Shown here: piece by piece, positions 18,001 through 24,000 of the stretch
How the letters are laid out: every line of letters begins with the position of its first letter
Numbering within the stretch: the first letter of the stretch is position 1
DNA from: a virus
Taxonomy: Duplodnaviria > Heunggongvirae > Uroviricota > Caudoviricetes
Length of the DNA stretch: 64,000 nt
Direction: 5' to 3' (one strand)
Virus record (IMG/VR): IMGVR_UViG_2913112809_000002
Made by a program: the position numbers

Positions 18001-21000
18001 TCATATCATCCGGGATAGCATCGACTGCTTCGCCGATGATCCAGGACGAACGATAGGACCATTCCACCAGCATGCGGTTACGACTGGTGAAATTAGCCCG
18101 GTAGGTGGATGCTGAGTGCTGGTTAGGTGTCTGCATCCCTACGCGGGCAATAAAATTCTCATAACCATCAGCTGTGGCCTGCGCAGTTCGCCGCAGGGCT
18201 TGTTTGTTTCGTGCCATCAGGCCTGTCTCCCCAGTTGTTCCCAGATATCCAGCGATGTATCAATTGGCGCGAAGGCCATAATGAATGCGTCAGCAACGTT
18301 TGGTGATGGTATCTCGCGTTTTGCGAGGTCTTTTTTACTTTCGACCATCACACGTCCGTTACGGTCAAAATCGCGATGAGGTGTTGTCAGTTCCAGTTTC
18401 AGCTTTTCAAGCAACGGACAACGAGAATCTATGCTGATCAGCTCATCCACAGGATACTGTTCTCCGTTGTTAATGGCGTTAAACGTATTTCTGAAACGGT
18501 CAGCCACCAGCCACCATGCCTGAGCCTTAAGATTTGCGAAAAAGTCTTTGTTGGGGATGCCGTTGTATTCGTCATCTGGCTCATGCACACCAGCACCGGC
18601 GTTAAACCTCTGGTAATTCACACGTCTCGCGTATGCATTCTCGCTCTTCCGGTCAGCGTTAATTTCAGAGAATTTAGCACCGGCAGACGCACCAACACCG
18701 ATAGAGTCGTAAACAATATCTGCTTCACGCTCCAGCGCCGCCTGATAAGTACGCTGGCAGCTCTTCAGTAATTCATCTTCTTTGGCCTTCCATTCGTCGG
18801 CCCAGAAAACAACGGATCCGTGACGGTAAACGTTAGCGCACTTATCTGTACCACTGTCAGCCACGTCAAAGCCAATACGCTTTCTTCCACTGGGTTCGAA
18901 ATTTAACGTTTTGTGCGCATCCACTGCGGCTTCTATCCAGGACAGTTTGATGATTGCCGCATCATCATCAGACTCCGGAACGCCCTCATACACATGTTTA
19001 AAACCATCCGGATCACGGCGTCGCGCCGCGTCGATAACCTTAAGCATGGTGTCAGACAGAAACGGATTTTCGTCATAGTTAATTTTGCGGATGAGAGTGC
19101 CTTCGGGCGGATCAACAACAAAGTTGCGCCAGACAAAATCAGTAACAAGTCCGGGGTTGAATATGAACCAGCATTCTGAACCCTCTTTACGGATCGTTGG
19201 CTCCAGAATTTTCCACTGGTATTCCGTCAGTGCGTGGGCTTCTTCCAGCCACAACACATCGATCCCCTCCAGTGACTTAATTTCTTCGATGTTGCGCCAT
19301 AATCCATAAAAAACAAATTCCGAGCCAGTAACCCGGTTAATGATTTTGTTGTTCAGAATACGGAAACGGTGCCGCAGGCCAAACCTGTCTATCTGAATTT
19401 TGAGCAGGGTATACACCGACTCTTCGATTTTATTCTGGATCTGACGGGCACAACAAAAACGCAGGGTGTATTTATTCGACAGAAATATGGCAATGCCAGC
19501 GGCATCCCATGATTTTGACGATGACCGGCCACCATAAAGCACTTTGTTACGTGCCCGCGTAGTCCAGAAACTACGTAAAGCCGGATTAAGCGTCGGTTTG
19601 GATGTCAGAGTAGAAGTCATTGAGGTCACGCTCTCCATTGCCATCATCAATACCTGCATCACGGCGAAGACGATCAGCCTCCAGAGACACCTTATCAGTG
19701 GCGGCCTTGCGGTAGGCTGTATCAGCAAATATTTTTCCTACCGTCGCAAGCGTGCCAACGATGGACTCAATACGAACTGTATTGCGCATCATTGCTTTCT
19801 CGGCGGCGCTGATATTTTCCATCAGCATCTTCCTTTCCTGGTCCCCATTAGCATCTTCCAGCGACACCAGCCACCGACCAATATTCTCTGCAGCGACAAG
19901 GTTGTTAGCACGAAGGCGAAATAATTCGTCCTCGAGCGTCAACGCTTTAGCGTCCTCTATCACCTCATCTTTGAGCAGAAGGCGACGGGCATAACCACCG
20001 TGTTTTAATGCCTGCTGGTTACCGGGTTGGAATGGGTTAGTCGGGGGATCGGTACGCATTCCGCGTATCGGTTTCGTATCCGGTGTAGCTTCTGTTTTTG
20101 GTTGCGTACCTTTTTGTGTAAGGCCAGTAATGGCAGGCTTTCTGCTGGTACGCACTTTTCTTTTTTGCGTACCATTTTTGCAAACCTGCGTACCGCCACT
20201 GCGTACCCAACCAAGCTTTTTAGCCCTCTTCCTGATAGCCCCTTCTGTTACGCCGTATTTCTCGCCTATATCACGGAGGCTAAGGACTCCGGCCCGGTAT
20301 GCCGATTCGATGGCCTCCCAGTCCGGTTTTGCCATGAATTTTTCCTCTTAGTGACATTATCGAAGCCCCTTATCAAAGGAGCTTCTGTAATGTCAGTCCC
20401 GAACGAACGTAACCTTCGTGTTTGTCGCTCGCCGTACAAGGCGCGCCGCTTCGCGTTGCATTTCATCGATAACTTTTGGCGTCATCGGCTGATGCGCATA
20501 TTTACGTTCAATCTCTGCAAAAATCCCGTTCATCGTTTCGCTGTCTGGTGGGATAACTTCAACGTTTAATCGTGCCATTAGTTTGTGCTGCCCTGTTTTT
20601 CTCAAAAGTCCTGATATCAGCCTTATCCCTGTTGCACTGTGCTAACGCTGACAACAACGCAACATTCAGGTTAATGCTGGCTCCCCACGTAAACGGGTCG
20701 GGTAAATCTGGCTGGGGTGTTTCATCCGTCAGACTGGCTGGTAACGGAACGACCGGCACCGATACGTATACCGTTCGCGTATTCGTGCAACCGCTTAACT
20801 GCGCCAGAAGGAACGATACGAACAGCGCAATCATCATCCGCAACAGCCACTTTGATATCTTCCTGGGCTCTCTGTGACTCCAGTGCGATCTGCTGTTTTG
20901 CATGCTGGTTAGCCAGGGAGTTAATCTCAGCGACCAACACTGGCTTCGTATAGCGCCATGCCGCCAGCCCTTGTCCGCAGAAGCTCGCCATGTCTTTCTT

Positions 21001-24000
21001 CTGGTCAAACTCATGACATTTCATGTTGAGCTGCGCACTTAAGCTGTTGCGATGCTGAAGTTCTCCGGTGAAGTAGTCATCCAGGACTTTATAGGCTGCA
21101 TATTTAAATCCGGGGTTTAGCCATGCTGCATAATCATAAGCAACAAACTTCCCGCCATATGTTCCACCGTGTACACCGCGCTCAGTAAAAACCACAGATT
21201 CGTGGTTTTTCTCCAGCTCGGCTAAGAACTCTTTGGTCTGCTTGTTTCGCAGGTAGTGGTACGGAGATTCAGATTCACTTTTACCACTGGCTTTCCACAT
21301 ATCAGTGAGGCAGATCATGCCATCTTCACCGATACGAATTGGTTGATTGAAGAGGGTTAATGATTTCATAGCGTGTACCTACTCTTTGAAATGAACCTTT
21401 GCCGCACAGGAAACCAGCCCACCGAGGCTCGCCAGCACTAACTGGTATCCTCAAAGGCCCATTCCAAAGGGTCAGGTTCGGTGTTTATTGTGCGCTGCGG
21501 TGCGCGGTGAAATACCGGTACAAAAATGCCCCGCATCTGCGAGGCATTTTCCTGAAAGTCACTTGTTAAATTTCAGTGAAATTAAAATTATTTTAAGCAC
21601 TGCGTCCTGATGTACTCCTGCAGGTAGTTAACCTGCGCGGTTATCCTGTCGATTCCACTTCGGAGACGGTAATAATTGAGTTCAGCATCTGCTGTAAGTC
21701 TTGGGCTTTCTCCATCGCCCATGCCGCTGGCTCCGGTCGTTGACTTTGCACAGGTGGCGGCGACTTGCAGGCGCTTACGCCCAGCAGAAACATCAGCACG
21801 GAGACTTTCGATAGTCGCGTTAGCATCAGCAAGCTCCTTTGTGTATCTGGCGTCGAGTTCTGCTACGTCACGTTGACGCTTCTGCATGTCAGCGATTATG
21901 GATGCGGCTTTGTCGCGCTGCTCTTTATAGGCGATGGCGTTATCACGGTAATGATTAACAGCCCATGACAGGCAGACGATGATGCAGATAATCAGAGCGG
22001 AGATAATCGCGGTTAACCTGCTCATTGCTGCCCCCACAAACAGACTTCACGCTCAATCTCACGACGGGTCATCAGCCCTTTCCATTGCTTACCGCCAGCG
22101 TATGTCCAGCGACGTAGCTGGTCACATGCGCCCTTGATATCGCCCTGGTTGATTTTGCGAAGAAGCGTCGATGTTCTGAAATTGCCTGCGCCCACGTTAT
22201 AGACGAACGAATAAAGAGCGCCGCGCGTTGTTTCCGGTATATCGACTTTGATGTACGGGTTAATTTGTCTGGCGACCGTGGCAAGGTCTTTATTCAGGAG
22301 GGCTTTGCATTCTGCTTCGGTATACGTTTTACCGGGAATGATGTCTTTTCCTGTATGCCCGTAACATACAGTCCATACACCAACAATATCTTTGTATGGT
22401 ATGTAGCTGACACCTTCCAGACCATCGTTACCACTTGGTCCAGTGATTAACACAGATGCTATAGCAATAGCCCCGCCACCAATAGCAGCAGCAACGGCTT
22501 TTCGTAATGATGGAGGCATTATTCACCTCTCGCAGCCTTTCGTCTGTCTTCTCTGATTTTGAAATACAGATTTGTCAGATAAGTGAGAAAACCCAACACA
22601 AGGCTTCCAAGCACTCCAATCGCAGCCCACTGTGACGGACTGACCTGATCCAACCACTGCAAAAACCAGTATCCTGCACTACCAGCAGATGTTCCGTAGG
22701 CAATGCCAGTTGAGATTTTGTCCATTGATTTCATAGCAACGCCTCCGCCAGTAACGGATTGCGTAGTTCTTATATTGGGAAGGGGAAAAAAGAAGGCCGC
22801 AGCGTAACTATCACTGATGAATTCAGGATAGCCAGTGGCTACGGCTCAGTTATGGTGCTGGTTAACGGACTTGAACCGCTACCCATTCGCTTACAAGGCG
22901 ACTGCTCCACCACTGGAGCTAAACCAGCATATTTGGCGGGACAGCGTGGACTCGAACCACGATAAGAAGGTTAACAGCCTTCCGTAATGACCTTTATACG
23001 ACTGACCCAAATAAAAAATCCCGAAACCGTTATGCAGGCTCTAACTATTACCTGCGAACTGTTTCGGGATTGCATTTTGCAGACCTCTCAGCCTGCGATG
23101 GTTGGAGTTCCAGACGATACGTCGAAGTGACCAACTAGGCGGAATCGGTAGTAAGCGCCACCTCTTTTTATCTCACTACCACAACGAGCGAATTAACCCA
23201 TCGTTGGGTCAAATTTACCCAACCTTATTCAAAAAGTCAATATCATGCCGTTAATATGTTGCCATCCGTGGCAATCATGCTGCTAACGTGTGACCGCATT
23301 CAAAATGTTGTCTGCGATTGACTCTTCCTTGTGGCATTGCACCACCAGAGCGTCATACAGTGGCTTAACAGTGCGTGACCAGGTGGGTTGAGTAAGATTT
23401 GGGATTAGCATCGTTACAGCGCGATATGCGGCGCTTGCTGGCATCCTTGAATAGCCGACGCCTTTGCATCTTCCGCATTCTTTCTCAACAACTCTCCCCC
23501 ACTGCTCTGTTTTTGCTATATCAACCGCACGGCCTGTACCGTGACAATCTCTGCATCTTGCGCCCGGCGTCGCGGCACTACGGCAATAATCCGCATAAGC
23601 GAATGTTGCAAGCACTTGCAGTACCTTTGCCTTAGTATTTCCTTCAAGCTTTGCCACACCACGGTATTTCCCCGATACCTTGTGTGCAAATTGCATCAGA
23701 TAGTTGATAGCCTTTTGTTTGTCGTTCTGGCTGAGTTCGTGCTTACCGCAGAATGCAGCCATTCCGAATCCGGCTTGTGATTGCGCCATCCCCATAGCAG
23801 CCATCACATCAGTACCAGAAAGAGAGTCAGAAGCCGTGGCCCGTGGTGAGTCACTCATCATCGGGCTTTTTGGCGAATGAAATTTAGCCACGCTTTCGAG
23901 TCTCATGCGCCTTCTCCCTGTACTTGAATCAATGTGAGGTTTCCGCAGAACACTGCGCCGGTATCGATATACATCTGGTTGGCAAACTTGAGTGGTTTCA

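Follow-up and report, generated by a model that had tools for sequence, protein, structure and literature searches.

A predicted KilA-N/ORF11CD3::i-spanin fusion and a probably orphaned lysC gene at a likely mosaic junction in a lambdoid prophage

Native LysC proteins are Sec- and Lol-exported outer-membrane lipoproteins that pair with an inner-membrane spanin (i-spanin) to carry out the final step of lysis, the disruption of the outer membrane. Embedded, overlapped, and separated spanin gene architectures have been defined, and the i-spanin and outer-membrane spanin (o-spanin) form a complex that spans the periplasm via their C-terminal regions (PMC6139136). Phage P2 LysB/LysC is the prototype of the overlapped architecture and the namesake of the Pfam family PF23793. 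Shigella phage SfV, like SfIV and SfII, carries an overlapped two-component Rz/Rz1 spanin; in the study of Kongari et al. (2018), SfV and SfIV make up an i-spanin group of two, and their o-spanins belong to the 'Mu' family (PMC6139136). Here, a locus with parts of such a system is described from a 64,000-nucleotide (nt) stretch of Caudoviricetes DNA, IMG/VR record IMGVR_UViG_2913112809_000002, which is referred to as the window. It consists of a 215-amino-acid (aa) open reading frame (ORF) with a KilA-N domain and a lysC-type lipoprotein frame that overlaps its 3' end.

The window LysC has the o-spanin Pfam family and the architecture of P2 LysC, whereas the native i-spanin partner of this LysC type differs from P2 LysB, with a subthreshold score against the NCBIfam model TIGR03495 (16.5 bits; cut-off, 92.75). 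In SfV, the 182-nt overlap has the same geometry as in the window, and Rz1, which is 73% identical to the window LysC over 106 aa, shares with it the long signal n-region (MQNSRSHWSHREPRKISKWLLRMMI), the lipobox, and a periplasmic Cys that is conserved. However, the complete 130-aa i-spanin of SfV, which has a transmembrane domain (TMD), is encoded directly after the endolysin, whereas the window has a separate Rz/Rz1 pair upstream. The prophage of Escherichia coli NCTC9022 resembles the window from the junction described below through lysC and the following 61-aa ORF, a 579-nt segment (20336 to 20914) that is ~99% identical, with 5 differences, but it has a holin, a GH24 endolysin, an intact i-spanin, and lysC, with neither a KilA-N gene nor a second spanin pair. 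The KilA-N cargo genes of HK620 (hkbK), Stx phages 1717 and 2851, and EC12 occupy the same slot after Rz as the window gene, and that of EC12 is preceded by the same terminator and leader. These native KilA-N proteins are 165 aa long and end in LQITIPGLPG, where the window protein instead has ~60 aa of an i-spanin.

The locus is very probably a mosaic junction produced by short-homology (illegitimate) recombination, in which lysC is a recently orphaned, functionally silent relic. The features that bear on this explanation, all on the minus strand, are as follows.

20722-21369, minus strand: predicted chimeric ORF, 215 aa, with KilA-N, ORF11CD3, and an i-spanin tail (Pfam, PHROGs).
20915-21369, minus strand: segment from a KilA-N/ORF11CD3 gene, aa 1 to ~152 (megablast; alignment to EC12).
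20904-20914, minus strand: recombination junction, 11-nt microhomology GGCTAACCAGC (three-way DNA alignment).
20722-20903, minus strand: 3' half of an i-spanin gene in the KilA-N frame, dual-coding with the 5' part of lysC (identity to NCTC9022).
20559-20903, minus strand: lysC from its conserved ATG, predicted 114-aa prolipoprotein (PF23793; phrog_456; RefSeq homolog).
20559-21014, minus strand: open lipoprotein frame containing MMIALFVSFLLAQLSGC.
21588-22025, minus strand: Rz, intact i-spanin, 145 aa, with an N-terminal TMD (Pfam Phage_lysis, E = 5e-36; hydropathy, 2.64; gene calls).
21641-21832, minus strand: Rz1, embedded in Rz (Pfam Rz1, E = 2e-20).

A megablast search with positions 20336 to 21600 against 5,426 complete E. 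coli genomes and 50,697 phage records returned two non-overlapping sets of matches that meet at ~20899 to 20914, and no record in these databases covered ≥80% of the query. Positions 21600 to 20899 match KilA-N genes in more than 1,000 E. coli and phage records at 94 to 98% identity, including HK620 hkbK, the Stx phages, and EC12, and these matches stop at query positions 696 to 702 (window, ~20899 to 20905). Positions 20914 to 20336 match DUF2570/lysC loci at up to 99% identity. In NCTC9022, which represents the second parent, a 130-aa ORF with an N-terminal TMD, beginning MKLRYKLVIVAFFVTVIGSFIW and ending ...VTSQSDG, lies directly after the GH24 endolysin gene, and lysC overlaps its end. The EC12 parent encodes a 165-aa KilA-N/ORF11CD3 protein ending ...LANQLQITIPGLPG. 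In the DNA alignment of the window, NCTC9022, and EC12, the stretch GGCTAACCAGC is common to both parents, and the window changes from one parent to the other within these 11 nt, in frame. The first ~68 codons of the i-spanin gene, which encode the TMD and the first helix, are thereby replaced by the KilA-N/ORF11CD3 gene, and the native KilA-N architecture (~165 aa, ending ...ANQLQITIPGLPG) has lost its C-terminal ~9 residues in exchange for ~60 aa of the i-spanin.

These alignments bear directly on the original prediction, which placed the lipoprotein frame over KilA-N sequence: the frame overlaps the 3' remnant of its own i-spanin gene, fused onto KilA-N/ORF11CD3. A lipoprotein gene overprinted on, or natively embedded in, the KilA-N cargo gene as a new pair analogous to Rz/Rz1 would account for two open frames and a clean lipobox, but it is extremely improbable, since the whole lysC ORF lies downstream of the junction, in DNA ~99% identical to native i-spanin/lysC loci, and native KilA-N/ORF11CD3 genes end ~9 codons past the junction without such a frame. 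Overprinting of lysC on KilA-N is excluded by the mapping of the junction. In the proposed recombination, one lambdoid parent would have contributed the holin, lysozyme, Rz/Rz1, terminator and leader, and KilA-N/ORF11CD3 cargo gene, and the other, also lambdoid, would have contributed the 3' half of a DUF2570-type i-spanin gene, the overlapped lysC, the 61-aa ORF, and the terminase genes; these native structures presumably preceded the fusion. The crossover would lie within the 11-nt GGCTAACCAGC identity, which happens to keep the reading frame, and would have yielded a cytoplasmic KilA-N::i-spanin-tail fusion without the i-spanin membrane anchor, together with a complete lysC gene. A complete lysis cassette came in with the left-hand module, and for this reason the fusion would have been tolerated.

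The domain content of the 215-aa ORF agrees with this composition. Pfam KilA-N (PF04383) matches residues 9 to 101 (56.9 bits; cut-off, 23.8; E = 2e-15), and ORF11CD3 (PF10549) matches residues 109 to 154 (42.1 bits; cut-off, 25; E = 1e-10). In PHROGs, residues 1 to 159 match KilA-N-type families and residues 152 to 214 match phrog_214, 'Rz-like spanin' (E = 2e-18), and the tail is 66% identical to residues 62 to 129 of SfV Rz. The precomputed Pfam list of the identical protein includes PF10828 (DUF2570). The native 130-aa i-spanin scores 23.1 bits against this model in the local Pfam search, below the cut-off of 26.6, and is annotated as DUF2570 in RefSeq and in the precomputed annotation. 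The ORF, described in the original prediction as a KilA-N protein, thus reads as a chimera of KilA-N/ORF11CD3 (residues 1 to ~152) and the C-terminal ~60 aa of a DUF2570-type i-spanin, joined in frame. Among the other KilA-N homologs listed, none contains PF10828 or aligns with the C-terminal part of the query. Other variants of KilA-N/ORF11CD3 were seen, one with a Rha N terminus fused to ORF11CD3 and one with a different C-terminal extension; the KilA-N/ORF11CD3 gene is a frequent substrate of recombination. Since no more than ~9 native residues are missing, the fusion probably still has the activity of the KilA-N/ORF11CD3 protein, whatever that may be.

The spanin part of the fusion has a different fate. 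With a 19-aa Kyte-Doolittle window, no transmembrane or hydrophobic segment was found in the 215-aa protein, the highest value being 0.73, versus 2.2 for the native i-spanin and 2.6 for the resident Rz. The i-spanin tail is predicted to be unable to reach the periplasm because the fusion lacks a hydrophobic segment. No cognate i-spanin with an N-terminal TMD lies beside lysC, and such a pair is present upstream as Rz/Rz1; Rz, with its partner Rz1 embedded, is the only membrane-anchored i-spanin in the prophage. LysC would therefore be without a partner and take no part in lysis, because its i-spanin fragment is fused to a cytoplasmic protein with neither signal nor anchor. Disruption of the outer membrane would be left to the intact Rz/Rz1 pair 200 nt upstream, which presumably performs it.

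The lipoprotein frame itself is a real and already known Rz1/LysC-type o-spanin gene, as judged by homology. The original prediction that it is unlikely to be a chance frame holds, since the 92 aa read from its "MM" match Pfam PF23793, "Rz1-like lysis system protein LysC" (67.3 bits; cut-off, 27; E = 1e-18), and phrog_456, "Rz-like spanin," is matched end to end, signal peptide included (E = 2e-27). A chance ORF is ruled out by these E values and by the polymorphism data given below. In RefSeq, an ORF of E. coli NCTC9022 that is 99% identical to the window LysC is annotated as lysC (WP_001181608.1). NCBIfam gave no match at E ≤ 0.01 for LysC, the chimera, the 61-aa ORF, or the proteins of the second prophage in the window, and the RefSeq name 'lysC' is not reproducible with NCBIfam because no LysC match is found there. 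The hydrophobic core of LysC (hydropathy, 1.82) is followed by the lipobox LSGC, with the Cys codon at 20789 to 20787; the predicted mature protein has 76 aa and the N terminus C-T-N, and its +2 residue is Thr rather than Asp, which fits outer-membrane sorting of a predicted lipoprotein. The likeness to embedded Rz1-type genes drawn in the original prediction stands for the protein, a LysC-family member of the Rz1 type, but not for the gene arrangement, which is overlapped as in P2 and SfV. The lysC start lies within the 3' part of the i-spanin gene, in the +1 frame, and the lysC end is 163 nt beyond the i-spanin stop (20559 versus 20722), so the embedded architecture of lambda does not apply.

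The 176-position profile phrog_214 is matched by both frames, its positions 69 to 131 by the chimera tail and 131 to 175 by LysC residues 37 to 80; this odd match probably arises from frame-merged members of phrog_214. A single ancestral i-spanin/lysC gene that was frameshifted was considered and ruled out, since all full-length relatives keep two frames with the same i-spanin stop; the end-to-end match of LysC to phrog_456, including the signal peptide, also contradicts it.

The start of lysC was located by comparison of relatives. An ATG at 20903 to 20901, 66 nt upstream of the Met codon at 20837 to 20835, is present in every relative examined, and it is the start used for lysC in RefSeq and for Rz1 in the SfV record. 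The i-spanin codon over it varies (CAT, TAT, AAT, or GAT) and always ends in "AT," and the first Met of the "MM" is Val in 12 of 88 loci. In every native (nonrearranged) locus, GAGG or GGAG lies 9 to 10 nt before the conserved ATG. The 116-nt overlap reported in the original prediction is correct for the start at 20837 to 20835; from the conserved ATG, which gives a 114-aa precursor, the overlap with the i-spanin-derived frame is 182 nt, the geometry annotated for SfV Rz/Rz1. The n-region added by the upstream start (MQNSRSHWSHREPRKISKWLLR) is conserved as protein and resembles that of phrog_7528, an unrelated family of small lipoproteins. It forms an unusually long extension of 22 residues before the hydrophobic core, and this comparative evidence is useful for spanin annotation.

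In the window, the conserved ATG is formed by the first three bases past the microhomology, and the DNA upstream of it comes from the KilA-N parent, so that GAGG is replaced by CTGG. The crossover thus removed the Shine-Dalgarno (SD) sequence of the conserved lysC start. Predicted pairing of this start with the anti-SD is -5.8 to -6.4 kcal/mol in native loci versus -1.5 in the window, and it is only -2.3 kcal/mol for the alternative MM start (ATG 20837). With KilA-N sequence in place of its SD, lysC would be poorly translated.

Conservation of the lipoprotein frame in homologous regions, proposed with the original prediction as a check, was found, but in the native spanin context rather than that of KilA-N. 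A scan of viral contigs gave 322 stretches encoding relatives, from which 80 loci were kept; these, together with E. coli genome loci and the chimera's own contigs, made up a tblastn set of 88 loci with 71 to 100% protein identity to the window LysC. All 88 have an open lysC frame, the LSGC lipobox is invariant, the i-spanin stop lies constantly 116 nt after the MM codons, and nearly all encode an i-spanin of 126 to 136 aa with a TMD. In the lysC-only part, beyond the i-spanin stop, the ratio of nonsynonymous to synonymous polymorphism (pN/pS) is 0.16 in the lysC frame versus 0.81 and 4.6 in the two unused frames. These frame-specific values from the lysC-only region were used, and the diversity of the i-spanin-only region, which is inflated by mosaic N termini and the two rearranged forms, was set aside. 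The lysC frame appears from these values to be under purifying selection in its native spanin context.

The i-spanin N-terminal halves are mosaic in the 80 viral loci, with at least five unrelated N-terminal/TMD types (MKLRYKLVIV..., MKMSYWVLIV..., MSISLKSLIV..., the Rz-like MSRLTAII..., and MTAEAILALV...). Each of them is followed by the same conserved C-terminal half, which occurs together with LysC, and the position of the exchange boundary coincides with that of the lysC start.

A second rearrangement with its breakpoint in the same place was found in the defective prophage at ybhC of E. coli B and C, where a deletion junction, AGCTTA|ACCAGCATG, joins a DUF551 pseudogene to a DUF2570 pseudogene. 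In E. coli B ATCC 11303 (retrieved segment, 3990 to 4010), the spanin side of this junction lies inside the same GGCTAACCAGC stretch, and the junction is carried by 45 complete E. coli genomes. As in the window, the i-spanin is truncated in the same 11 nt, lysC is intact, and its SD is lost; unlike in the window, a large deletion joins the spanin part to the opposite-strand early-region DUF551 gene, with no in-frame fusion and no lysis cassette left.

That the orphan LysC is still functional, either as a second o-spanin with the resident Rz or as a stand-alone moron of benefit to the lysogen, like Bor or Cor, is unlikely. In its favor, the gene is intact in a transcribed late-operon position, the independent E. 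coli B/C rearrangement also keeps lysC intact with its breakpoint in the same 11 nt, and i-spanin N-terminal halves are naturally exchangeable, including Rz-like N termini on the DUF2570-type C terminus. However, the SD of the conserved start was destroyed in both rearrangements, the resident Rz has an Rz-type C terminus that pairs with its own embedded Rz1, and spanin subunits form complexes via their C-terminal regions (PMC6139136). Both rearranged forms are, moreover, essentially clonal, so that the intactness of lysC is uninformative on selection. An i-spanin-independent role of LysC as an outer-membrane lipoprotein, or a recombination hot spot at the lysC 5' boundary, would explain why two independent rearrangements broke in the same 11 nt and left lysC intact, but either one has a low probability: the E. 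coli B/C lineage is clonal and lost the SD too, and conservation jumps exactly at the lysC 5' boundary. It does so because dual coding begins there, and hence many megablast alignments to diverged relatives start at query positions 199 to 204.

Several points weigh against a silent relic produced by recombination. lysC is fully intact in its late-operon position and has a second possible start at ATG 20837, from which some LysC may still be made. LysC may have a role that is independent of an i-spanin, or it may cross-pair with the resident Rz, although no similarity is evident between the C terminus of Rz and that of the DUF2570-type i-spanin. Chance (1 in 3) could account for the junction being in frame, as could selection for a fusion protein that is stable. 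The retrieved chimera copies, being identical, are uninformative on retention or decay since the fusion.

The exact chimera forms one 90% cluster of three sequences, named by NCBI for Escherichia sp. E4742, which is the sole cluster with this architecture in the database searched. It was read on four contigs, of which the three retrieved have no mismatches and 0 to 3 gaps relative to the window over up to 12.8 kb. The native parents are abundant, with one KilA-N cluster of 1,030 member sequences and one i-spanin cluster on at least 1,000 contigs. By sequence comparison, the fusion is recent and confined to one lineage, its recency following from the mere 5 of 579 nt at which the right-hand segment differs from NCTC9022. 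The presence of two prophages in the window and the identity of the retrieved copies could raise the suspicion that an assembler joined two prophages, but such an artifact is exceedingly unlikely, because the same junction occurs in an NCBI draft assembly, on a 5.12-Mb contig, and in two independent Logan assemblies of SRA runs, and the second prophage offers no i-spanin/lysC or KilA-N homolog by which an assembler could be misled.

The minus strand is the coding strand for all genes in this part of the window, and the remaining features around the junction are as follows.

23283-23906, minus strand: antiterminator Q.
22853-23008, minus strand: tRNA-Asn and tRNA-Thr.
22519-22734, minus strand: holin.
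22022-22519, minus strand: lysozyme.
21522-21551, minus strand: terminator-like hairpin and U run, after Rz and 5' of the chimeric gene (RNA fold).
20393-20578, minus strand: 61-aa ORF, function unassigned (phrog_12811, E = 2e-39).
19586-20335, minus strand: small terminase subunit, 249 aa, right-hand end of the slot (phrog_370, E = 9e-95).
From 19728 downward, minus strand: large terminase subunit.

The 215-aa ORF does lie between a lysis cassette (Rz/Rz1, 21588 to 22025) and a terminase (small subunit, 19586 to 20335), as first proposed, and the terminator ahead of it was confirmed as a predicted structure. It consists of a 13-bp hairpin followed by a U run (21551 to 21522) in a 91-nt fold of -28 kcal/mol (z = -4.4), which was shown only by RNA folding and was missed by a scan for consensus terminators. 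In a scan for consensus promoters, promoter-like sites were no commoner than in shuffled sequence. The 236 nt after Rz that comprise the terminator and leader (21365 to 21600, minus strand) are 97 to 98% identical in other E. coli prophages, where the gene after the shared leader encodes a Rha-family regulator rather than a KilA-N protein, so that one leader precedes differing cargo genes. The 61-aa ORF always comes next after lysC in the module, and overlaps its 3' end by 20 nt. In both NCTC9022 and E. coli B, its annotation reads "hypothetical protein," and it appears among the gene calls that also include Rz.

Two further observations concern NCTC9022. The intact i-spanin gene is unannotated in its RefSeq record (retrieved segment, 3801 to 4193), although the overlapping lysC is annotated. 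In several other E. coli records, lysC is likewise listed and a DUF2570 gene is not, a pattern that points to a systematic gap in the annotation of overlapped spanin pairs. Right after the 61-aa ORF (segment, 4580 to 4705), a 41-aa remnant of the window-type 249-aa small terminase subunit is found (MAKPDWEAIETAY...; MAKPDWEAIE...); next come a gene in the opposite orientation and then a terminase of a different kind. The remnant is another mosaic scar. This order suggests that the i-spanin, lysC, the 61-aa ORF, and the window-type terminase were once one contiguous module.

The window as a whole holds two prophages back to back in opposite orientations, A at 1 to 37000 (minus strand) and B at 38000 to 64000 (plus strand). 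Prophage A, which contains the chimera, has a nin region, Q, tRNA-Thr and tRNA-Asn, lysis genes, a Terminase_3-type TerL, and a Phage_portal_3/DUF1073-type portal. Among the features of prophage B are tRNA-Thr and tRNA-Gly (43475 to 43628), a TerB-like gene (44168 to 44680), two holin-like ORFs, an M15 endolysin, Ant, and a 641-aa ORF (49551 to 51476) encoding a putative lambda-like large terminase. Prophage B is ruled out as the recombination partner, because its lysis cassette is different and it lacks homologs of both KilA-N and DUF2570/lysC, and no canonical Rz/Rz1 was found in it. After Ant, on the plus strand, the region 47274 to 47595 encodes a 44-aa ORF with a single TMD (47274 to 47408) and then a 60-aa lipoprotein (ATG 47413; lipobox, LLAGC; phrog_7528), placed after an anti-repressor-type gene. 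The signal n-region of this lipoprotein (HWTHRMPRAAAKW) is long and resembles that of LysC (HWSHREPRKISKW). Past the TAG stop of the 44-aa ORF, the frame stays open and, read by eye, resembles the start of the i-spanin/lysC overlap (EALDTQNAS versus IALESQRAQ). The two ORFs could be a miniature or degenerate spanin pair.

The KilA-N and LysC gene families and the overlapped architecture are already well known, and the locus is an ordinary scar of phage mosaicism that leaves the current understanding of lysis unchanged. For annotation, what appeared to be a new overlapping gene in KilA-N is a known o-spanin gene whose partner gene was cut in half, and gene callers report such a fusion as a "KilA-N domain-containing protein," often missing the spanin parts. 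For phage evolution, the locus offers a clean, datable case of the formation of a lambdoid mosaic by a mid-gene crossover in 11 nt of microhomology.

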